Shown here piece by piece: positions 14,385 through 31,340 of a stretch of DNA of 61,019 nucleotides. Below the pieces are notes generated by a model that did not search any database, was not told where the DNA came from, and saw only the letters and a program-made list of their open reading frames with translations. Source of the DNA: a virus (lineage: Duplodnaviria > Caudoviricetes). Position numbers and translations under genes: made by a program. Position 1 is the first letter of the stretch. The number at the start of each line of letters is the position of its first letter. The stretch lies in IMG/VR virus record IMGVR_UViG_3300020171_000029, positions 1-61,019 of that record, one strand, 5' to 3'.

Positions 14385-14906
14385 TTAAATTAAAATTTCT
14401 TCAAAAGTTTTAATTCTTATTTTTTCTAAATCATTAATTGATATTAACCACCCAATTGTTATTTTTTCTTTTGTTGGAACTGTTGTTTCTCTCCATGGTG
14501 CTGGTCTTCCAGTTTTTGAACTATTTCTTATTTCTTTATTAACATATTCTCTGATATCTTTTAATTTATAAATATATATTTTTTTAGTTATTTGATTTCT
14601 TACAATAAAAATATCTACCTTTGATTCTGTCCCCCATCCCAATTTCCATTTTCCATCATAGTATAATCTTTCTCTTTCAAAAAATAAATTCTCTATCATT
14701 TTTTCATCACTTTTAGTTTCGATTTTAATTATTTTATCATCTTTTTTCATAAGAAAATCAACATCTAATATCCACCATATTTTTATTTTTCTAACATCTT
14801 CAAGTATCCAACCATCTTTTTCATAATTTTTTAATAATTTTTTAATAAATTCTTCATTTGTTTCTCCTTTTTTCATTAGCACCCCGTTATAATTTCCAAA
14901 AATCAT
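14385..14906 (-). CDS. PD-(D/E)xK nuclease-like protein
   Basis: DVDF...IETKSD...NLFFE...GW...SKVD; ATGA-coupled to methyltransferase. Confidence 0.65.
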   Translation of the reverse strand: MIFGNYNGVLMKKGETNEEFIKKLLKNYEKDGWILEDVRKIKIWWILDVDFLMKKDDKIIKIETKSDEKMIENLFFERERLYYDGKWKLGWGTESKVDIFIVRNQITKKIYIYKLKDIREYVNKEIRNSSKTGRPAPWRETTVPTKEKITIGWLISINDLEKIRIKTFEEILI

Positions 14907-16087
14907 ATTTCATTTCCCCAACTATCCCAATCTTTTCTTGTATTCCTTGCAAATAATTCTACATAATTACAATCGGGATACATTTTTTCAATTATTTTAT
15001 AAACACACTCTGGTTTTTTGCTATGTTTAAAATTTTCTCCTATGATTATACTTTCTGGTTTATATTCTGGTAATATAGAACCTTTTGTGCAAATTGTTAA
15101 TAATTCATGTTTCCCCATAATATAAAATCCAAGTGCTCCATATGTTGCTTTTTCTTTTGTCCAAACAAAATTAGTTTTATATTTAAATCCTAATCCATTA
15201 ATTAATTCAAATGATTCTTCAAGTAAAGGATTTGTCACCCACATAAATAATACACAATTTTTTTCTGCTAAATCTTTTATTCCTCTTCCATTTTCATCTT
15301 TAAATTCTAACATTTCTTTTATAGACATAGTATCATATTTTGTTTGTGCAGCTCCAGCAGTCCCTTCATTTTTATATTTCCAAGGTGGGTCTATATAAAT
15401 AACAGAATATTTTCGTTTTGGTAACGGATTAGATTTTTCTTCTTTTGCTGTTTCTTTTCTTTCTTTAATTTTAGATTCAACATTAATTTTATTATATGCT
15501 TGGTTTATAGAAATCTCACCGCTTCTTGCTTTTTCTTTAATTTCTTCATTTTCAGAATCAATAATTTTTTTAACTTTTGTTGCTTGTGGTTGGCTTAATT
15601 TTACTCTTTTAGCAACTTCTTTATGTGTATGATGCGGTTTAATAAATATTTTATTAATCCGCTTTTGTTCTGGAGAACCTCCAGAAAGTTGTTTATTTTT
15701 TTCTGCTTCTTTTTTATCATATTCTGCAAGTTTCCAAGAAAGTTCTAATTTTTGGAAATCTGTTAAATTTCTTCTTGCTAATTGATTTTTACCAATCCAA
15801 TTAATTACTTCATTCTCATTCTCAAACTTTTTAGAAATTGTTTTATAAGAAATCTTATGTTTTTGACAAATCTTAAATCTATTATGCCCATCAATTATAA
15901 AATCATTCCAAAGAACAAGAGCATCACGACAACCTTCATTTATAATAGAATCTTCTAATCCTTTAAATTCTTCATCAGTAAGTGGTGGTATTAAATTAGA
16001 AAAATTTTTATTTATTTGTATCATAATCATCTCCTTTGATAAATTATTATAAATTATTTTATTTATAAATAAATATATACTCAACAA
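14903..16087 (-). CDS. ParB-N fused MT-A70 family N6-adenine methyltransferase
   Basis: PPLTDEEF..L..SI..G, IIDGHNR, NQLARRNL; IYIDPPW, LFMWVT, HSKKP, ELFAR, WDSWGNE. Confidence 0.92.
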   Translation of the reverse strand: MLSIYLFINKIIYNNLSKEMIMIQINKNFSNLIPPLTDEEFKGLEDSIINEGCRDALVLWNDFIIDGHNRFKICQKHKISYKTISKKFENENEVINWIGKNQLARRNLTDFQKLELSWKLAEYDKKEAEKNKQLSGGSPEQKRINKIFIKPHHTHKEVAKRVKLSQPQATKVKKIIDSENEEIKEKARSGEISINQAYNKINVESKIKERKETAKEEKSNPLPKRKYSVIYIDPPWKYKNEGTAGAAQTKYDTMSIKEMLEFKDENGRGIKDLAEKNCVLFMWVTNPLLEESFELINGLGFKYKTNFVWTKEKATYGALGFYIMGKHELLTICTKGSILPEYKPESIIIGENFKHSKKPECVYKIIEKMYPDCNYVELFARNTRKDWDSWGNEI

Positions 16088-18363: not shown

Positions 18364-19146
18364 ATGGCATGGGATAATTTAGCAGAAAAAACAGAAGTGA
18401 AAGAGCAAGAAAAACCAAAAACAAGTATCTTATTTAAAAATCTTTCAGAAGCCAAACAAGATAGAGGAATAAAAATACTTTCATATGGCAACTTCTCAAC
18501 AGGTAAAACGCATTTCGCATTATCATCAGATAAACCAGTTTATATAATTGATACAGAAAATGGTGCATCGCCTTTAGCAAATAAATTTCCAGATGCAAAA
18601 GTTATAAACATTTGTAATACTGATTTTGAATCTGTTGAAGAAAAAGATGAAGTAAAAAACTTTGAGAATTTTCAAGATACAATTAATTATCTTATGAGCA
18701 TTCCTGACAATGAAATTGGAACAATCATAATAGATAGTATATCAGATATTTGGACTTGGTGTCAAGGATATTGTAAAATTAAAATATTTAAATTAAATAT
18801 AGAAGACAGATTAAAACAAAGATTTGATTGGGGAATTATAAACAATATGTTCAAAAAACCAATAATGAAATTGATTAATAAAAATTGTAACGTAATTTTT
18901 ACAGCAAGAGAAAGTGATATTTATGATAACGCTTCTGGACCAAGTGGAAGAGTAAAAGCAGATTGTCAAAAAAGAGTTCCATTTTATGTTGATGTAGTGT
19001 TGAGACATGAATTAAAATTTATAAATAAGCAATTTCAATTTCAAGTAAAAATAGAAAAATGTCGTGAAAATGGAAAAATAATTGGAAAAACAATAGTAGA
19101 TTTAAATTTAGAAAAATTAAAAAACTTAATAAAAGAAAATGAATAA
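18364..19146 (+). CDS. Sak4/AAA_24-like P-loop ATPase (recombinase)
   Basis: YGNFSTGKT, IIDTENG, IIIDSISD, VIFTARE. Confidence 0.8.
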   Translation: MAWDNLAEKTEVKEQEKPKTSILFKNLSEAKQDRGIKILSYGNFSTGKTHFALSSDKPVYIIDTENGASPLANKFPDAKVINICNTDFESVEEKDEVKNFENFQDTINYLMSIPDNEIGTIIIDSISDIWTWCQGYCKIKIFKLNIEDRLKQRFDWGIINNMFKKPIMKLINKNCNVIFTARESDIYDNASGPSGRVKADCQKRVPFYVDVVLRHELKFINKQFQFQVKIEKCRENGKIIGKTIVDLNLEKLKNLIKENE

Positions 19147-19774
19147 AGGATATAATCATAAAGAAAATTGTATTTGTAAATTATGTATTGGAAAAACTTC
19201 ATTTAAAAAAGGATTTGATAAAAGAAGAACCAACGGATTTCAAAAAGGTAATAAATTATTTGTAGGTAAAAATAATCATATGTTTGGTAAAAAAAGAAGT
19301 TGTTCCTGGACATCAGAAAGAAATAAAAAACAAGTAGGAGAATTAAATCCATTTTATGGAAAACATCATACAGAAGAATCGAAATTTAAACAGATTATTT
19401 CAAAAATTAGAAATAATAAATATAAGTTTAATCCAACTGAAAAATATTATTTAGATTTAAAAATGAAGTTTAAAAGCAATTGGGAAGCTAATATGGCAAG
19501 AATTTTTAATTTCTTAGAACTAACTTGGTATTACGAACCACAAATATTTAAATTAAAAAGTTCTTTTTATTGTCCTGATTTTTATATAAAAGATTGGAAT
19601 TGTTTTATTGAAGTTAAAGGATATATGTATCCTAAAAGCTTACAAAAAATAAATGAATTTAAAGAAAAATATCCAATAGAAATTATATCATCTAAAGAAT
19701 ATAAAAGTTGGTGTAATGATTTTCCATTACAAATTAAAGAATTGTCAAAAGGAGAAAAAAATGATAAAATTTGA
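19139..19774 (+). CDS. NUMOD3-containing PD-(D/E)xK endonuclease, probable homing endonuclease
   Basis: GKNNHMFGK, GELNPFYGKHHTEESK; FKSNWEA, YEP, YCPDF, FIEVKG. Confidence 0.8.
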   Translation: MNKGYNHKENCICKLCIGKTSFKKGFDKRRTNGFQKGNKLFVGKNNHMFGKKRSCSWTSERNKKQVGELNPFYGKHHTEESKFKQIISKIRNNKYKFNPTEKYYLDLKMKFKSNWEANMARIFNFLELTWYYEPQIFKLKSSFYCPDFYIKDWNCFIEVKGYMYPKSLQKINEFKEKYPIEIISSKEYKSWCNDFPLQIKELSKGEKNDKI

Positions 19775-23560: not shown

Positions 23561-24244
23561 ATGAAAATCGAAAAAAAATTTCTGGAAATCCCATTTGATT
23601 GTATAAAAGATTTAATTATAGAACCTTGTCTTAAATTCAATTCTGAAGGAATGTTCATAACAGCATTTGCAGAATCTAATGCAGCATTGTGTTTGTTTAA
23701 ACTGCCAAAGGAAAAATTCGTTCAATATGAATTTTTAGAAGAACAAAAATTCAAAATTAGTTCAGAACTTCTTGCAAAGATTATGAAGCGAATCAAAACG
23801 CAATTTGTAAATCTGGATTTTAAAGATGAAAAGTTTATAATATCTGATGAGAATAAAAAGGAATATTCAATCGCAGTTATGCATGATGATGAGGTTGAAA
23901 GGAATGTCCCACAGCTTGAGTTAAAATCCAATTTTAAAATGATAAGCTCTGAATTACAAAATTTGTTTTTAGATGCAGGTATAATAGGCGATGATATAAA
24001 ACTTGAAACAAAAGGAAAAATAATTATTTCTTCTGGAGAATTAAACAAGTTTAATCAGGAAGTTGAATGTGAAGTTGTTGGAGAGGCACAATCCATTTAT
24101 AGTTTAGAATATCTTAATAAGTTTATGAATGCTTCAAAATATTTTAAAGATGTTTTGTTTGAGTTTGATTCTAATAGTCCTTGCAGATTAACTTTTAAAG
24201 ATGAATTGGAAATTCAATTTGTTTTGGCGCCAAGAGCTGAGTAA
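23561..24244 (+). CDS. pcn: PCNA sliding clamp
   Basis: DLI.E..LKF.SEG, F..YE, two-domain repeat, YSLEYLNK, P..L.F, FVLAPRAE C-terminus. Confidence 0.9.
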   Translation: MKIEKKFLEIPFDCIKDLIIEPCLKFNSEGMFITAFAESNAALCLFKLPKEKFVQYEFLEEQKFKISSELLAKIMKRIKTQFVNLDFKDEKFIISDENKKEYSIAVMHDDEVERNVPQLELKSNFKMISSELQNLFLDAGIIGDDIKLETKGKIIISSGELNKFNQEVECEVVGEAQSIYSLEYLNKFMNASKYFKDVLFEFDSNSPCRLTFKDELEIQFVLAPRAE

Positions 24245-24257
24245 GGATTTTTATAAA

Positions 24258-24923
24258 ATGGAGAGTGAATTATTACCTACAAATGAAGAACCAATTAAGA
24301 TTATTAATGCTGATTGTCTTGAGGTTTTGAAGAAACTTCCTGATAATTGTATTGATTTGGTTTTAACAGACCCACCTTATGGAATAAATCAAGATAAAGG
24401 GATTCAATTATATACAAAAGCATCTTCCAAACATACAGTAAAAAAATATAAAGATAATTGGGATTCAAAAACACCTTCTAAAGAGATTTTTGATGAAATA
24501 TTAAGAGTGGGGAAAAAAGTTATTATTTTTGGAGGTAATTATTTTATAGATAAATTGCCATTTAAAACATCTTGGATTATATGGGATAAAATAGGTAATA
24601 TAAAATTTAATGATACTTTCACAGATGTTGAAATGGCATGGACTAATTTTGATAGAAATATATCTAAAAAATATATTTGTATTCAACATGGTTTTGTTTC
24701 TGAAGAAAGAAAAAGAGAACATCCAACCCAAAAACCAGTTAAATTATTTAGAAATATTATAAAAGATTATTCAAAAGAAGGAGAGCTTATCATGGATTGC
24801 TTTCTCGGCTCAGGAACAACAACAATTGCATGTAAACAATTAAACAGAAAATGTCTTGGAATAGAAATATCAAAAAAATATTGTGATATTGCAAAAAAGA
24901 GATTACAACAGGGAGTCTTATAA
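24258..24923 (+). CDS. N4-C/N6-A DNA methyltransferase (beta class)
   Basis: DLVLTDPPYG, HPTQKP, DCFLGSGTT, GIEI; ends QQGVL. Confidence 0.93.
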   Translation: MESELLPTNEEPIKIINADCLEVLKKLPDNCIDLVLTDPPYGINQDKGIQLYTKASSKHTVKKYKDNWDSKTPSKEIFDEILRVGKKVIIFGGNYFIDKLPFKTSWIIWDKIGNIKFNDTFTDVEMAWTNFDRNISKKYICIQHGFVSEERKREHPTQKPVKLFRNIIKDYSKEGELIMDCFLGSGTTTIACKQLNRKCLGIEISKKYCDIAKKRLQQGVL

Positions 24924-25071
24924 TGGTATGCCCGAGCAGAAAAAATTTAATGATATGCAAAATAATTAAAGATAAAAAAACGAAGAAAAAAGAAGTTAAA
25001 CCAAAAGAAAAGATAATAGAAGAAGAACATCAAAAAAGATTAAAAAAATTAAAAGAAATGGGATTTAAAAT

Positions 25072-25578
25072 ATGAAAAAATTAGCAATACAAATGGGAGG
25101 AAGAAGTGATGAATTTCATACTCCAAAATATGCAATAAAACCATTACTACCTTTTTTAAAAAAGAATTGGATTATATGGGAATGTGCTTGGGGAAAAGGA
25201 AGTTTAGCAGAACATTTAGAAAAAGAAGGATTTAAAGTAATTGGAGATAGTGATGTAGATTTTATTAAAGTTTCTTATATGGATCATTCAGATTGTTTAG
25301 TTACAAATCCACCTTACTCAAAAAAAGATGAATTTTTGAAAAAAGCATTTGAATTAGGAAAGCCATTTGCATTTCTTATGCCATTAACAGCATTGGAAGG
25401 AATAAAAAGAGGAGAATTATTTAGAAGATATGGAATACAACTTATAATTCCAAATAGAAGAATAAATTTTATAACTCCTTCTGGAAAAGGAAGTGGAGCT
25501 TGGTTTCAAACTGCTTGGTTTTGTTGGGGATTAAATTTGCCAAAGGATTTAAATTTTGTAGAATTAGAAAAAGAATGA
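25072..25578 (+). CDS. Small N6-adenine DNA methyltransferase
   Basis: DEFHTP, IWECAWGKG, VTNPPYS. Confidence 0.85.
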   Translation: MKKLAIQMGGRSDEFHTPKYAIKPLLPFLKKNWIIWECAWGKGSLAEHLEKEGFKVIGDSDVDFIKVSYMDHSDCLVTNPPYSKKDEFLKKAFELGKPFAFLMPLTALEGIKRGELFRRYGIQLIIPNRRINFITPSGKGSGAWFQTAWFCWGLNLPKDLNFVELEKE

Positions 25579-25919
25579 AAAAATTAGCAATATTCGACAT
25601 AGAAACAGATTCACTAATCATAGAAGAAGCACAAATAAAATTCATAGGGATTCTTGATTTACAAACTAATGAATATAATATAATCCAATATAAAGAACCA
25701 AAAGAAATTAAAACAATATTGAACAATTATGATTTCATAATCACATTCAACGGTGAGCAATTTGATATACCAATATTAAAAAGGCACAGAATAATTATCC
25801 CAGATTATAAACATATTGACTTATATAAAGTTTTTAAGAAGAAGGCGCCATTGCTTTGTTCTGGCGGGTTTAAGAGTTATAGTTTGAATAATATCACAAA
25901 GGAGATTGAGAAGTTATGA
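25575..25919 (+). CDS. polB: PolB 3'-5' exonuclease N-terminal fragment (ExoI+ExoII)
   Basis: Start at ATGA overlap 25575; FDIET, TFNGEQFDIP, HIDL, SYSL; stops before ExoIII. Confidence 0.85.
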   Translation: MKKLAIFDIETDSLIIEEAQIKFIGILDLQTNEYNIIQYKEPKEIKTILNNYDFIITFNGEQFDIPILKRHRIIIPDYKHIDLYKVFKKKAPLLCSGGFKSYSLNNITKEIEKL

Positions 25920-26170
25920 TAAAAGAATTTAAAATAAAAAAAGAAAATCAGTTTAAAGATTTTAATGGTTTAACAACCATTTCTATTCAAGCATATAAAG
26001 AAAATAATCTATTTGGTATTGAATTTATAAAATTTTTTGAATTAAGAGATTATAATGGACATACATCACACCATTTTATAAAAACTATTAAATCAGAAAA
26101 TATCAACATAGATTTAGAATTTAAAAATATTTCTCAAGAATTAATAAATTTAAAAAGGGATATTAAATGA
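25916..26170 (+). CDS. Hypothetical protein inserted between polB halves
   Basis: 84 aa, ATGA overlaps both sides. Confidence 0.6.
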   Translation: MIKEFKIKKENQFKDFNGLTTISIQAYKENNLFGIEFIKFFELRDYNGHTSHHFIKTIKSENINIDLEFKNISQELINLKRDIK

Positions 26171-26901
26171 TGGAAATAAATAAAGTTATTTATGGTGATT
26201 ATTTGGAAGAAATGAAAAAGTTACCAAATGAAAGTATAAATTTAATTCTTACAGACCCTCCTTATGGGATAAATTTTCAATCTGGACACAGAAAACAAGT
26301 TAGTAATGTTAAATTTAATAAATTTAAATTAGATGATAATTTATTATGGTATGAATTATTTTATGATGAATGTATGAGAATTTTAAAAAATGATTCTTTT
26401 ATGTATATTTGTTTTAGATTTGATAGTTTATTTGAAATAGCAAAATTATTTGGAGATAAAGTAAAGCCATTTAAAGTTTTAATTTGGGATAAAATGGATT
26501 ATGGAATGGGAGATTTGAATTTTTTTTCTGTATCTTATGAAATTATTTTATGTTATAAAAAAAGAAATCCAAAGTTAATAAATTATGATAAACGTCCAAA
26601 TGGTATTTTTAGAATACCAAAAGTTCAAAATTTTAGATGTAAAGAAAATAAACCAACAGGAGATAAAAATCAAGATTTTATGTTACATCCAACACAAAAA
26701 CCATTAGAACTTATGAAAAGAATAATAAGTGTGTCATCAAAAGAAAATGATTTGATTTTAGACCCGTTTGCAGGAGGAGGTTCTACATTAATAGCATCAA
26801 AAATGTTAAAACGAAATTATATTGGAATAGAAATAGATGAAAAATATTGTGATGTAATTCAAAAACGATTAAATAAAGAAAATAAACAAATGATATTATG
26901 A
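26167..26901 (+). CDS. N4-C/N6-A DNA methyltransferase (beta class) between polB halves
   Basis: LILTDPPYG, HPTQKP, LDPFAGGGST, GIEI; ends KQMIL. Confidence 0.93.
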   Translation: MMEINKVIYGDYLEEMKKLPNESINLILTDPPYGINFQSGHRKQVSNVKFNKFKLDDNLLWYELFYDECMRILKNDSFMYICFRFDSLFEIAKLFGDKVKPFKVLIWDKMDYGMGDLNFFSVSYEIILCYKKRNPKLINYDKRPNGIFRIPKVQNFRCKENKPTGDKNQDFMLHPTQKPLELMKRIISVSSKENDLILDPFAGGGSTLIASKMLKRNYIGIEIDEKYCDVIQKRLNKENKQMIL

Positions 26902-28313
26902 AAAAAGAAAAAATTAATTATAAAATATTTCAAAAAGATGAATGGACACAAGAAGAACTACAAGAAATAAAAAAATATCTTAAACAAGATTTAAACCTCA
27001 CAAAAGACCTATGGCAGTTCCTAATAAAAAAATTCGACTCACTTAAAGAATTCATACCACAAAAAGATGCAGAAAACTTTAAACACATAACAATGTCAAG
27101 CGGAGCATATGGATACAAGGTTATCTGCCATCTGTTGGGATTAAAAGAAGAATATAATAATATTAATGGAAATCCCCATTATGAAGGAGCCTATGTGATG
27201 CAGCCAAAAGAGGAAACGTTAAAAGGGAACATTCTATGCTTTGATTTTGCATCGCTTTATCCGATGATGTATGTCCATGCAAATTTGTTTTCTCATGATT
27301 GTAAGTGCTGCAAGCAAGAAGAAAAATGGCATGGTAATGAAAGTTTTAAAGTAGAAGGTTATTATTGTTCAAAACAACAAGGAAAGATAGAAGAATTGGT
27401 CAAAGAATTTTATATGAAAAGAAAATTATACAAGTTAGAAAAAGATAACAGACAATTTGCTATAAAAATAGTTCTTAATTCTCTTTATGGGATTTCCGCA
27501 AAACCATCATTTAAAAATCTTTATAATAAAAATATTGCAAGTGATTGCACGGCATTGGCAAGGCAATGCATTCATTATGCCATAAAGAAATTTGAAGATA
27601 ATATGTATGATATTGTTTATTCCGACACAGATTCTGTTTTTATAAATCTAAAAAATTATCAGAAAAAAGAACTTTGCATGCAATTGGCAGAAGAAATATC
27701 AATAGAAATAAGCAGACAATTTCCTTTTCCATTTGATGAGTTTAGTTTAAGTATTGATGATGAGATAAAGTATCTGCAATTTTTTATTGGTAGAGATGAG
27801 CAGTTGAATAAAAAGCATTATCTTTATATAAACAAAGATGATAAATTAAGGATAAAAGGATTGGATATTATAAAAAAAGATTGCAGTGAATTAAGTCAAA
27901 AAATATTTAATGATTTTTTAAAAGAAGATATTATAAAAAATTTAAATTGTAAATTTGATAGGGATTTTATGGATAATAAAATTAATGAAATTATAAAACA
28001 AGATAAAACGATTATTGCAAAGCGATTTAATATAAAATCATTAAAAAATTATAAGTCAAAAACTTCTATTTATTATCTTATTGGAGAGAAATATGGAAGT
28101 GGTGAGATTTTATTGATAAAAAATTATAAATTTGGTGCTGGAAAAAGGATTAAATATTGTTCTATAGATGAAGCAAAAAATTTAGATGTTGGTGATTTGA
28201 ATTTAGAAGATATTTATAAAGAATTGGGAGTTTTTATAAAAGATTATAAAGTTGAAAAGGTTAAGAAAGAAAAGAAGATTAAAAAAATTAAATCAAAGCA
28301 AATGGAATTATGA
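26898..28313 (+). CDS. polB: Family B DNA polymerase, ExoIII + polymerase domains
   Basis: ExoIII YLKQD; YEGA; motif A FDFASLYP; motif B KIVLNSLYG; motif C YSDTDS; KKHY, IKG; ends KQMEL. Confidence 0.93.
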   Translation: MKKEKINYKIFQKDEWTQEELQEIKKYLKQDLNLTKDLWQFLIKKFDSLKEFIPQKDAENFKHITMSSGAYGYKVICHLLGLKEEYNNINGNPHYEGAYVMQPKEETLKGNILCFDFASLYPMMYVHANLFSHDCKCCKQEEKWHGNESFKVEGYYCSKQQGKIEELVKEFYMKRKLYKLEKDNRQFAIKIVLNSLYGISAKPSFKNLYNKNIASDCTALARQCIHYAIKKFEDNMYDIVYSDTDSVFINLKNYQKKELCMQLAEEISIEISRQFPFPFDEFSLSIDDEIKYLQFFIGRDEQLNKKHYLYINKDDKLRIKGLDIIKKDCSELSQKIFNDFLKEDIIKNLNCKFDRDFMDNKINEIIKQDKTIIAKRFNIKSLKNYKSKTSIYYLIGEKYGSGEILLIKNYKFGAGKRIKYCSIDEAKNLDVGDLNLEDIYKELGVFIKDYKVEKVKKEKKIKKIKSKQMEL

Positions 28314-28897
28314 ACTGTATAGAAGAAATTTGGCAATTACATAGAAATAGTAAATCTTATACTGGTGCATATCCAGAAGGATATATAAGAAATGTTGATA
28401 AACTTATAACATTAACAGGAAAAAAAGTTTTACATTTATTTGGCGGTATTACAAAAGAAGATAAAAATAATCATACAAATGATACAAAACAAGAAAAAGC
28501 AACATTTCATTTTGATGCAAGAAAAAAATTTCCGATTAATGATGAAGAATATGATGTTGTTATGTGCGACCCTCCTTATGATTTAGAAGAAAATTTTATA
28601 CATTTATCAGATAAGAAAAAGAGATTGCATTATGGAAAAAATCTTTATGATACTCCATTTGTTCCACCATATAGTTTTATAGATGAAGCAGTTAGAGTTT
28701 GTAAACATAAAGGATTTATATGTGTTTTGCATTTTTTAGTTTATAAAATTCCAAAAGGAACTAAAAGATATGCATTAATTCCAATTATTTCTGGTCCTAA
28801 TTTAAGAATAAGATGTTTAAGTATATTTCAAAAAATAAATAATAATGAAGAAATACAAATTTTAAACAAAAAATTAATACAACAAAAATTAATATGA
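28310..28897 (+). CDS. Putative amino-methyltransferase (DPPY)
   Basis: YTGAYP, VLHLFGG, DVVMCDPPY; ends QQKLI. Confidence 0.75.
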   Translation: MNCIEEIWQLHRNSKSYTGAYPEGYIRNVDKLITLTGKKVLHLFGGITKEDKNNHTNDTKQEKATFHFDARKKFPINDEEYDVVMCDPPYDLEENFIHLSDKKKRLHYGKNLYDTPFVPPYSFIDEAVRVCKHKGFICVLHFLVYKIPKGTKRYALIPIISGPNLRIRCLSIFQKINNNEEIQILNKKLIQQKLI

Positions 28898-29481
28898 AAA
28901 TACTAAATTTATATGCAGGAATTGGAGGAAATAGAAAACTTTGGGGAGATGAACATGAAGTTACTGCAATTGAAATTAATCCAGAGATTGCTGGGATATA
29001 TAAATACAATTTTCCAAATGATAAAGTAATAGTTACAGATGCTCACCAATATTTATTGCAGCATTATCAAGAATTTGATTTTATCTGGAGCAGTCCACCT
29101 TGTCCAACACATAGTAGATTATGTTTTAGCCAACCAATTAAGAATTATCCAGACATGACTTTTTATCAACAAGTTATTTTATTAAAAAGCTGGTTTAAAG
29201 GAAAATGGGTTGTTGAAAATGTAATACCTTATTATGAAGCATTAATTAAACCAACTTTTGAATTAGGAAGGCATCCTTTTTGGAGTAACTTTAATGTTAA
29301 TAAAATAGAATTTAAGAATATTGATGTAAGTCGTTCAACAGCAGAAGAACTTTCAGAATATTTAGATATGCCTATACCAAGAATAAAAGCAAGATTATTA
29401 TTAAGAAATTGTATAGAACCTAAAATGGGTTTACATATTTTTAATTGTGCTTTTAAAAAAAGACAAGGAGTTTTAATATGA
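28894..29481 (+). CDS. C5-cytosine DNA methyltransferase (short)
   Basis: LNLYAGIGG, WSSPPC, VENV, RH; ends RQGVLI. Confidence 0.88.
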   Translation: MKILNLYAGIGGNRKLWGDEHEVTAIEINPEIAGIYKYNFPNDKVIVTDAHQYLLQHYQEFDFIWSSPPCPTHSRLCFSQPIKNYPDMTFYQQVILLKSWFKGKWVVENVIPYYEALIKPTFELGRHPFWSNFNVNKIEFKNIDVSRSTAEELSEYLDMPIPRIKARLLLRNCIEPKMGLHIFNCAFKKRQGVLI

Positions 29482-30134
29482 AACGAATACTATCAAAATC
29501 ACAAGCAAATTTATTTTTGCAATGTCCTTACAAATGGAAAAAAATATATTTAGATAAGATTTCATCTATACCATCACCTGCACAAGCGAGAGGAATTTCA
29601 ATACACAAAAAGATTGAAAAATTCTATAAAAATCTACAACCTGATATTGATTTAAAACATTTTATAAAATTTGAATTAAGAAGAATAAAAGATATGATTA
29701 AAGAAGGAAAATTTGATAAAAAATATTTTTTTCCAATATTTCAGGAATTAAAATTATATAATGAAGAACTTGGACTTAAAGGAATTGTTGATGCTGTGTT
29801 TATAAATTCAAAAGATGATGAACTTGTTGTAATAGATTGGAAGACAGGAAAATATTATCCAGATAAGTTTGACGATTATAGATTTGAACTTGCTGTTTAT
29901 GCCGAACTTTTAAAACATTCTGGAAAGGTAGATGAAAGTCCTGCTTATTGGGGAATATATTTTTCTGACCAAGATAAACTATTCTTTGAGAAGATTGATG
30001 ATGCTCATATTAAAAAAATGTATGATACAATGCATCAAGTAAGAAAAGGAATTGAAAGTGGTGAATATAAACCAAAAAGAAATGAGTGGTGTTACTGGTG
30101 CCAATTTAAACGAGAGTGTTGTTTTATAAAATAA
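29478..30134 (+). CDS. Cas4/RecB-like PD-(D/E)xK exonuclease with Fe-S cluster
   Basis: LS.S....F.QCP, G..IH, GIVD, IDWKTG, Y, CYWC....EC. Confidence 0.88.
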   Translation: MKRILSKSQANLFLQCPYKWKKIYLDKISSIPSPAQARGISIHKKIEKFYKNLQPDIDLKHFIKFELRRIKDMIKEGKFDKKYFFPIFQELKLYNEELGLKGIVDAVFINSKDDELVVIDWKTGKYYPDKFDDYRFELAVYAELLKHSGKVDESPAYWGIYFSDQDKLFFEKIDDAHIKKMYDTMHQVRKGIESGEYKPKRNEWCYWCQFKRECCFIK

Positions 30135-30135
30135 A

Positions 30136-31065
30136 ATGGAATTTAAAAAATACGATAAAATTTATGCAATTGGACATACTGAAAATTCTGATATATTTAA
30201 GGATAAAGATGATGAGATAATTATCCAGGAAAAGATTGATGGAGCTAATTTTAGATTTTATATAACAGAAGATGGTAAAATTATTTTTGGTAGTAGAAGT
30301 CAACAACTTACTTCTAATGAAGGAGAAGATACAAATATACAAAAAAATTTTCAAAGATGTATATTATATATAAGAGATAAATGGGAAAGTGTAAGAGATA
30401 TTGCTCCCAATTTATCACATTTAATTTTTTATGGGGAATGTATGGTAAAACATACTATAGCTTATGATTGGGAAATTATACCTCCTTATCTTGGATTTGA
30501 TATTTATGATATAAAAATTGGAAAATATTTAGATTATAAAGATGTAGAAACAATATTTTGTAAGAATTTAAAAGTTAACATAGTGCCACTTGTAAAAATA
30601 TGTAAAGCAAAAGATATAAAATCTATTACAGATGAGAGTGTTCCTAAAAGTATATATGCTTCAATTAGCTCTCAAGACCAACAAGCTGAAGGAATAGTTT
30701 ATAAAAATTATGATAAACAGTTAATAGCTAAATATGTAAGAGAAAAATTTAAAGAGAAAAATAGAGAAGTATTTGGCGGAAGTAAAAAGTTTGCTAAGAC
30801 AGATGATGAATACTTTGTAGCAGTATATTGTACTAATGCAAGAATTGATAAATGTATTTTCAAACTAATTGACGATGAAAATCCCCTTGATATGACCATT
30901 ATGGGAAAATTACTTAATATGGTTTACAAAGATATATGGGAAGAAAATTGGAATGAAATTGCAATAAGTAAAAAGAAGATTGATTTGTTAAATATGAAAA
31001 AATTAATTAGCAAGAGATGTTTAGAAGTATTAAAACAATCAATGGTAAATAATTCATTAAAATGA
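30136..31065 (+). CDS. Rnl2-family RNA ligase
   Basis: EKIDGAN, GSR, FYGE, GFDI, VP, EGIVYK, AKYV...FKE. Confidence 0.85.
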   Translation: MEFKKYDKIYAIGHTENSDIFKDKDDEIIIQEKIDGANFRFYITEDGKIIFGSRSQQLTSNEGEDTNIQKNFQRCILYIRDKWESVRDIAPNLSHLIFYGECMVKHTIAYDWEIIPPYLGFDIYDIKIGKYLDYKDVETIFCKNLKVNIVPLVKICKAKDIKSITDESVPKSIYASISSQDQQAEGIVYKNYDKQLIAKYVREKFKEKNREVFGGSKKFAKTDDEYFVAVYCTNARIDKCIFKLIDDENPLDMTIMGKLLNMVYKDIWEENWNEIAISKKKIDLLNMKKLISKRCLEVLKQSMVNNSLK

Positions 31066-31340
31066 GATATTTGAATATTGAACAATTAGAGTTAAAAGCG
31101 AAAAGTAAAAATAAAAGTAAACAAAACAGGACATTAACTACAATCATTAGAGCAAGAAGGATTTTAAAAATATTACAAAGAGATAATTTTATGTGTGTCA
31201 AATGCAAAGCAAAAGAAAAATTAACAATCGACCATATTGATGGAAGAAAATTTGCAAAACACGATAATGCAAAAAAATATAAATTAGATAAGTGTCAGAC
31301 ATTATGTATAGAATGTCATGATAAAAAGAATCAAAAATGA
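31062..31340 (+). CDS. HNH endonuclease
   Basis: RDNFMCVKC, LTIDHI, QTLCIECH. Confidence 0.85.
   Translation: MRYLNIEQLELKAKSKNKSKQNRTLTTIIRARRILKILQRDNFMCVKCKAKEKLTIDHIDGRKFAKHDNAKKYKLDKCQTLCIECHDKKNQK

Follow-up and report, generated by a model that had tools for sequence, protein, structure and literature searches.

A family B DNA polymerase gene in pieces: a variable insertion parts the two halves of a probable composite proofreading site in an uncultured virus

Introduction

Split family B DNA polymerases (PolBs) are already known, and in the available parts of the published accounts the reported breaks lie in the polymerase domain. Gene 43 of the Aeromonas phages 25 and 44RR is a two-cistron PolB (43A/43B) whose products co-purify and are polymerase-active (PMC2988022, citing Petrov et al. 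2010), and the insert between 43A and 43B of phage 25 includes a seg-type homing endonuclease (PMC2988022). The PhiKZ polymerase (DNAP-N/DNAP-C) is split in a palm insertion, with the two genes far apart and a cryo-electron microscopy structure of the complex (PMC13648687), while the split PolBs of magrovirus group B and Methanobacterium are broken in the catalytic polymerase domain (PMC5434244). In Aeh1, nrdA is split by mobE, a free-standing endonuclease that fragments an essential gene in a functionally critical region; the NrdA pieces reassemble without splicing, and the short tails made by the insertion remain on the fragments (PMC3045599, PMC2988022). Fractured genes in environmental phage-like DNA combine split inteins with an intervening free-standing homing endonuclease (PMC2677866). 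In this study, we analysed a PolB gene (polB) that lies in two pieces at positions 25575-28313 of IMGVR_UViG_3300020171_000029, a linear IMG/VR virus record of 61,019 bases with a CheckV completeness of 64%; the whole record is called the window below.

The window polymerase is broken between the exonuclease motifs ExoII and ExoIII. Our literature search, which was thin on subscription papers, surfaced no natural PolB split between ExoII and ExoIII and no split site with methyltransferase cargo. Fetched loci are denoted by L numbers and database proteins or protein clusters by P numbers.

Results

Two open reading frames are colinear halves of one polymerase gene

Positions 25575-28313 of the plus strand hold four successive open reading frames (ORFs), each joined to its neighbour through an ATGA overlap (Table 1). 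The first ORF, the N fragment, starts with MKKLAIFDIETDS, contains FNGEQFD and ends with SYSLNNITKEIEKL; the fourth, the C fragment, carries polymerase motifs A (DFASLYPMM), B (KIVLNSLYG) and C (YSDTDS). A first-pass annotation of the sequence had placed DIET and FNGEQFD in a 114-aa ORF, and YLKQD with all polymerase motifs in a separate ORF starting MKKEKINY that reads as its continuation, and both ORFs were found as described. Pfam matched the N fragment to RNase_H_2 (E 2.9e-13) and, at 21.8 bits and under the 23-bit cut-off, to DNA_pol_B_exo1, and matched the C fragment to DNA_pol_B (E 1.4e-28). A TTG at 25500 offers a possible upstream extension of the N-fragment ORF; the start is ATG in every relative.

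A protein search with the C fragment gave 150 proteins with E <=0.001 among 8000 scored candidates, the best 120 of which were listed. Among the closest matches listed were three contiguous orthologs, P0003, P0004 and P0005 (586, 583 and 589 aa; 73-74% identical), which have an RNase_H_2 domain at the N terminus and read ...SYSLNNI(A/S)K(E/T)IG-linker-KG(K/E)IDY... across the break. The N fragment was 75% identical to fused P0004 over residues 1-111, and the C fragment 74% identical over residues 114-581. When P0004 was aligned to the window by tblastn, residues 1-110 fell at 25575-25907 and residues 115-561 at 26904-28247, and only about 3 residues on either side of the break (EKL, MK) had no counterpart in the fused proteins. 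Since the contiguous orthologs align across the break, the two ORFs are shown by these alignments to be colinear halves of one polB gene with no residues lost, as the first-pass annotation had supposed. The solved Thermococcales PolBs match the fused relative with E 9e-24.

The break distributes the catalytic residues of the exonuclease over two chains: the N chain carries D8, E10, N59 and D64, the C chain Y27 and D31, and all six are invariant in the 28-row alignments of the two chains. Family members differ in the length and sequence of the ExoII-ExoIII linker, as expected of a surface loop.

The insert consists of two protein genes

Counted from the first base of the 84-aa ORF up to the base preceding the C-fragment ATG, the insert measures 982 bp, close to the roughly 980 bp first estimated, and it holds the 84-aa ORF and a DNA methyltransferase (MTase) gene. 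The MTase matched Pfam N6_N4_Mtase with E 1.5e-39 over the whole profile (positions 1-221 of 221). Pfam and PHROG gave no family for the 84-aa ORF, and matches in the Atlas were to unnamed clusters only, at 0.77-0.80. With homologs in two protein clusters, P0138 (78% identity) and P0139 (66%), the 84-aa ORF is probably a real gene; a homolog was present in 0 of the 100 fetched loci, and its AlphaFold2 model was poor, with a predicted local distance difference test (pLDDT) score of 62.6.

All three internal junctions are 4-nt ATGA overlaps and belong to a run of eight consecutive 4-nt gene overlaps at 24923-30134. Both ends of the insert had been noted to read alike, and the junction 14-mer TTATGAWAAAAGAA indeed has exact matches at 25914 and 26896 only. 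The 14-mer was considered as a target-site duplication and dropped as evidence of mechanism, as gene starts here resemble one another: identity of >=13/14 was also reached in 10 of 5671 pairs of gene-start contexts within the window, so the repeat is weak evidence and carries little weight.

An insert of this kind might be removed after transcription or translation, as a group I/II or archaeal bulge-helix-bulge intron, by a split intein or by translational bypass. The 14-nt direct repeat at the junctions and the in-frame intein-like inserts at other polB sites of relatives speak for such removal. Against it, Rfam gave 0 matches at E <=1 on both strands of 25000-28500, a search that did not include the bulge-helix-bulge motif, and no Hint, intein or Intein_splicing match was found in the four ORFs, in line with the absence of intein termini noted at the outset. 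The approximately 3 unaligned residues on each side leave no room for split-intein halves. Cuts at equivalent points within the repeat keep TGA in frame, so that removal of the insert leaves a stop/start and no fusion. The insert is moreover made of two conserved protein genes, and the same site in relatives holds four different inserts with differing junction sequences. We therefore regard removal of the insert, which had already been rated the less likely alternative, as very improbable.

Table 1. Coordinates of the features of the window described in the text
Feature	Position	Strand	Description
PolB N fragment	25575..25919	+	114 aa; ExoI D8, E10 (DIET); ExoII N59, D64 (NGEQFD); end KEIEKL*
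84-aa ORF, first insert gene	25916..26170	+	Conserved in two other protein clusters
N6/N4-type DNA methyltransferase, second insert gene	26167..26901	+	Intact, 244 aa; DPPY and FAGGGS motifs; end NKENKQMIL*
PolB C fragment	26898..28313	+	471 aa; start MKKEKINY; ExoIII KYLKQD (Y27, D31); C-terminal KQMEL tail
Left junction	25914..25927	+	TTATGATAAAAGAA; N-fragment stop overlaps 84-aa ORF start
Right junction	26896..26909	+	TTATGAAAAAAGAA; MTase stop overlaps C-fragment start
PCNA-like sliding clamp	23561..24244	+	PCNA_N, E 1.8e-5, 24.9 bits vs cut-off 20.3
EcoRI-like MTase	25072..25578	+	Directly upstream of N fragment; end ELEKE; 61% identity to L039 homolog inside site A
DNA-methyltransferase-like genes	14903-16087 (-), 24201-24923, 25072-25578, 26167-26901, 28310-28897, 28894-29481		Five packed around polB
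Genes with QxxL(F/W/I) tails	24201-24923, 26167-26901, 26898-28313, 28310-28897, 28894-29481		Also in loci L015, L016, L023, L025, L030, L039, L074, L087

The same break point recurs in relatives and holds varied cargo

We fetched 100 loci and mapped fused P0004 onto them. A family member was present in 90 sequences, the window included, and the state of the break point, called site A, was decidable in 66. The results showed that site A was contiguous in 59 of the 66 and split in 7 (the window, L010, L011, L015, L029, L030 and L039), L010 and L011 being near-identical loci from two records. The protein database held 14 further stand-alone N-fragment clusters of 114-117 aa with 73-85% identity; these came from 16 matches (19 candidates), of which the remaining two were the protein of the window itself and a 100-aa piece belonging to a fused type. 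The 14 fragments ended in KEIEKL (3), KEIEKLK (1) or KEIEKWK (10), and the ExoI D/E and ExoII N/D residues were kept in all of them.

The cargo of site A differed between loci. L029 carries an HNH ORF (Pfam HNH, E 4.7e-9), truncated at its start where the contig stops. In L010 and L011 a 76-aa basic ORF is followed by an out-of-frame tail similar to the C terminus of the Endonuclease_7 protein of L032 (57% over 21 aa against L032 residues 140-160, E 0.002 when just six short stretches were searched), which looks like a decayed endonuclease gene. The remaining cargo was an EcoRI-like MTase in L039, N6_N4 MTases in L015 and L030, and the 84-aa ORF with an N6_N4 MTase in the window. The first-pass annotation had suggested looking for fused or differently interrupted orthologs, and both were thus found, the former as P0003-P0005 and the latter as varied site-A cargo. 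Comparison of the loci shows the break to be a recurrent insertion hot spot common to relatives, and the founders at site A were likely homing endonucleases.

These loci also bear on whether an assembler joined the insert into polB. The window is a single metagenomic record, and the one sequencing run found to contain every sampled word of it, with no RNA run among the matches, may be the run from which it came; the Logan contig pieces over 25000-28500 were short, mostly diverged and in no case bridging, which gives no weight either way on the assembly. Such a chimera is nevertheless hardly credible, and is the least probable of the explanations weighed here. The same break point occurs at six other loci from several records and in the 14 stand-alone N-fragment clusters, N fragments ending KEIEKL and homologs of the 84-aa ORF are found on other contigs, and every junction is a clean ATGA overlap, as in 31 of the 95 same-strand gene pairs of the genome.

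Split forms are scattered among fused ones, and purifying selection acts on the N fragment

For the C part we built a tree on an alignment of 17 rows by 448 columns that excluded the first 24 residues after the break. Six split forms and three fused forms (L009, L012 and L013) fell in one clade with support 100/99. Constraining the split forms together cost 52.6 log-likelihood units and was rejected by the approximately unbiased (AU) test (p 0.00037), a test weakened somewhat by a quick tree having been seen before the split group was named; at least 4 changes between the split and fused states are needed. The fused members of the clade keep an outgroup-like KEIG, and every split allele has KEIEK. 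Each N fragment goes with its backbone: that of the window resembles L009, and those of L010 and L039 resemble L012. The simplest account would be that one split allele spread sideways among related viruses, like homing elements; repeated insertion or repeated precise loss could also produce the scattered state. Because L010 and L039 have the left junction in common, they probably derive from the same insertion event.

The ratio of nonsynonymous to synonymous substitution rates (dN/dS, Nei-Gojobori) of the N fragment was 0.11-0.17 between split forms vs 0.07-0.32 between fused forms, with dS near saturation in several pairs and about 58-63 synonymous sites. Between L010 and L039, dS was 0.66 and dN/dS 0.15. 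These values show purifying selection on the N fragment.

The first-pass annotation had raised lost proofreading (a mutator) as an alternative. In such a case the C fragment would be a lone, exonuclease-deficient mutator polymerase and the N fragment a decaying remnant or a protein with another role. The break does part ExoI and ExoII from ExoIII, and neither chain alone has the full DEDD site. Against this, the dN/dS of the N fragment equals that of the fused genes, the 14 further stand-alone N fragments are all intact, with constant length and their catalytic residues, and ExoIII Y27 and D31 are invariant in the C chains. The predicted complex described below, which passes its controls, also argues against it. 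Loss of proofreading is therefore improbable, although less so than removal of the insert.

The two chains are predicted to form one exonuclease domain

We modelled the heterodimer that the first-pass annotation had proposed for checking. The complex of the C chain and the N chain was predicted with a separate 28-row alignment for each, in three runs and with three controls. The score was 0.89 (runs 0.88-0.89) vs 0.00 for the best of the three controls; among reference cases, 58 of the 80 solved complexes reached this mark, as did 2 of the 110 mismatched pairs, counts that apply only roughly here because of the custom alignments. At least 78% of contacts agreed between runs, and the partner pLDDT was at least 88. 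The predicted interface joins C-chain residues 21-46 (the ExoIII helix) to N-chain residues 2-13, 22-29, 54-58 and 81-114, and in the model it is the ordinary core of a DEDD domain. The prediction suggests that the pieces resemble a complete domain, which does not imply binding of these particular copies.

Other insertions interrupt the polymerase gene of relatives

In-frame inserts of about 1180-1350 bp lie at motif B (KxxLNS, between N and S) in L029, L030, L039, L054 and L081, and L039 thus combines the site-A split with a motif-B insert. In L029 and L030 the first residue of the insert is Cys, directly after LN. L033 has an in-frame insert elsewhere in polB, and with it the in-frame inserts span about 1050-1350 bp. 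The inserts of L030, L054, L081 and L033 were scanned against Pfam: those of L030, L081 and L033 matched Intein_splicing (E 6e-6 to 1.5e-10), L030 and L081 below the gathering score and L033 above it together with LAGLIDADG_3, and the motif-B insert of L054 had no Hint or Intein_splicing match in Pfam.

Free-standing genes split the polymerase at further points. An Endonuclease_7 gene splits the palm of L032 and L077 between P0004 residues 411 and 413 (L032, E 2.2e-16), and a Cys-rich, HNH-like 148-aa ORF (phrog_1271, E 1.2e-8) lies between P0004 residues 389 and 392 in L055-L059. In L023 an MTase stands directly upstream of a polymerase fragment that starts MKTKKWHGNE, at about P0004 residue 250. 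Taken together, these comparisons indicate that mobile elements have targeted many sites of polB in the relatives. P0009 and P0015 were grouped with L032/L077, L055-L059 and L023 as further split points in the polymerase domain. In L028, at 1947-2073, polB shifts reading frame around P0004 residues 477-493, which could be a frameshift or a sequencing error.

Genome context and probable host

The window also encodes a portal protein, a large terminase, a D5-like primase-helicase and an MT-A70 methylase. The neighbours of the polymerase are a PCNA-like clamp, four more DNA methyltransferases, a PD-(D/E)XK nuclease and an RNA-ligase-family protein, in a region with a guanine-plus-cytosine content of about 19-34%. 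In L010 the same PCNA gene lies directly upstream of polB, without the three genes that intervene in the window. The nearest cellular polymerases among the matches listed were DPANN-type archaeal PolBs (26-32% identity). A profile scan of the species genome collection found no relative, and a single-protein scan of viral contigs found relatives at 23-24% identity only. From the PCNA gene and the distant cellular PolB matches, the host is likely archaeal and DPANN-like.

The 61-kb window holds at least 6 DNA-methyltransferase-like genes, of the Pfam types MT-A70, N6_N4, EcoRI/Eco57I-like and C5; L011 had no match to the two MTases downstream of polB. An exact 18-nt direct repeat (25072-25089 and 25575-25592) flanks the EcoRI-like MTase and equals the first six codons of polB (MKKLAI). 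Two matches of the repeat occurred in 0 of 100 shuffles, and it was the sole 18/18 pair among 5778 gene-start pairs; the EcoRI-like MTase gene, as an inserted gene, thus seems to begin with a start copied from polB.

Two further genes elsewhere in the window are free-standing and endonuclease-like: an HNH ORF at 31062-31340 (PF01844, E 1.5e-4, 22.3 bits vs a cut-off of 21.4) and a 211-aa ORF at 19139-19774 with a NUMOD3 motif (E 7.4e-10). NUMOD3 is a DNA-binding motif typical of homing endonucleases.

Methyltransferases around the polymerase share a putative clamp-binding tail

A terminal Q..[LIMV] followed by at most 2 residues was found in 15 of 20 dereplicated MTase-like ORFs of the window and the loci and in 19 of 64 PolB C-termini, vs only 17 of 576 ORFs of other kinds. 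Many more distant PolBs have a fuller QxxLxx[WFY] near the end, resembling a PCNA-interacting protein (PIP) box. In the window the tail is NKQMIL on the site-A MTase and SKQMEL on the polymerase, and three neighbouring MTases carry one as well. At site A, the tail ...ENKQ(Q/M)(T/I)L is common to the non-homologous MTases of L039, L030 and the window. The L039-type MTase that lies outside site A in the window has no such tail. We read the tail as a putative clamp-binding peptide that belongs to the site-A slot, and the PCNA-like clamp is the presumed partner of the C-terminal tail of the polymerase. The tails suggest clamp-tethered, replication-coupled methylation via the viral PCNA. Our search of the literature on PCNA and DNA methyltransferases surfaced eukaryotic cases only.

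Discussion

The first-pass annotation had proposed a two-chain polymerase whose exonuclease site assembles in trans, and this is the best-supported explanation of the locus, with colinearity, invariant residues, selection and the predicted complex in its favour. We consider it likely that mobile insertion put this gene in pieces and that its products work as a heterodimer with a composite exonuclease site and with proofreading kept. The starting point would have been a compact PolB with exonuclease and polymerase domains, about 585 aa when contiguous. On entering the length-variable linker between ExoII and ExoIII, a mobile insertion would have closed the upstream part with a stop codon and given the downstream part a start codon. 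Relatives have a free-standing homing endonuclease of the HNH or Endonuclease VII type at site A, and in the window the 84-aa ORF and the MTase would have replaced it. The four ORFs would be read from a single message, with translation coupled through the ATGA overlaps. The 114-aa N chain would give three of the four DEDD carboxylates; the fourth, together with the tyrosine, would come from the ExoIII helix of the 471-aa C chain. Both chains would then fold non-covalently into one exonuclease domain joined to the polymerase.

Several points weigh against this account. The evidence for assembly of the chains is a predicted model, and since the chains are halves of a fold that has often been solved as one chain, its passing the controls may reflect memory of solved single-chain polymerases. 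If the split allele spread laterally only recently, part of the divergence behind the dN/dS values would predate the split. A sliding window of DNA identity around the junction showed no clear co-conversion tract, and the identity of the first 90 nt, 79-85% between split forms vs 76-80% between fused forms, was within noise. Pfam and PHROG recognised no homing endonuclease in the window insert, such genes occurring at site A only in relatives, and the match of the 84-aa ORF to the L029 HNH region was not significant (E 0.19-0.39). Finally, with a record that is 64% complete, a second polymerase is possible.

A more tentative proposal, which we think rather unlikely but worth stating, concerns why the split is kept. 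Site A could be a reusable cargo slot, with a constant frame made up on the left of the resident start and on the right of the resident ...ENKQ(Q/M)(T/I)L* tail and the ATGA restart. The genes between them would be exchanged for one another, ranging from a homing endonuclease to DNA methyltransferases of three kinds. The tail would be a short PCNA-binding peptide of the same kind as the polymerase's own, by which the MTases could ride the viral clamp and methylate DNA while the split polymerase makes it, a form of replication-coupled anti-restriction. The split would then persist by guaranteeing joint production of the polymerase and the protective methylases.

If the heterodimer forms as predicted, the four-carboxylate DEDD active site is shared here by two polypeptides, and the locus would be a natural test of how far a proofreading site tolerates fragmentation. 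Closely related fused and split enzymes, 73-77% identical, form a ready pair for a comparison of fidelity. The locus would also display the life cycle of a homing site, in which an endonuclease invades and decays and anti-restriction methyltransferases replace it, and this cycle would sit inside an essential replication gene of an uncultured, probably archaeal virus group.

The comparison with known systems places the locus among split genes with several features of its own. Unlike the fractured split-intein genes, which are ligated by trans-splicing, the window fragments are without intein halves. It differs from Aeh1 nrdA in the enzyme concerned, in tails of about 3 residues (EKL; EKWK in relatives) and in an insert without a recognisable endonuclease. 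Like 43A/43B of the Aeromonas phages, it encodes a phage PolB as two cistrons parted by an insert, but its cargo is an MTase and an 84-aa ORF, its PolB is a compact two-domain enzyme and the virus encodes a PCNA; the gene 43 split is reportedly in the polymerase part and not between ExoII and ExoIII. With PhiKZ, magrovirus group B and Methanobacterium it shares a two-gene family B polymerase that forms, or is presumed to form, one enzyme. In two respects, neither of them reported for those three in the available parts of the accounts, it stands apart: the window break lies inside the exonuclease active site, and the slot that it opens holds a changing cargo.

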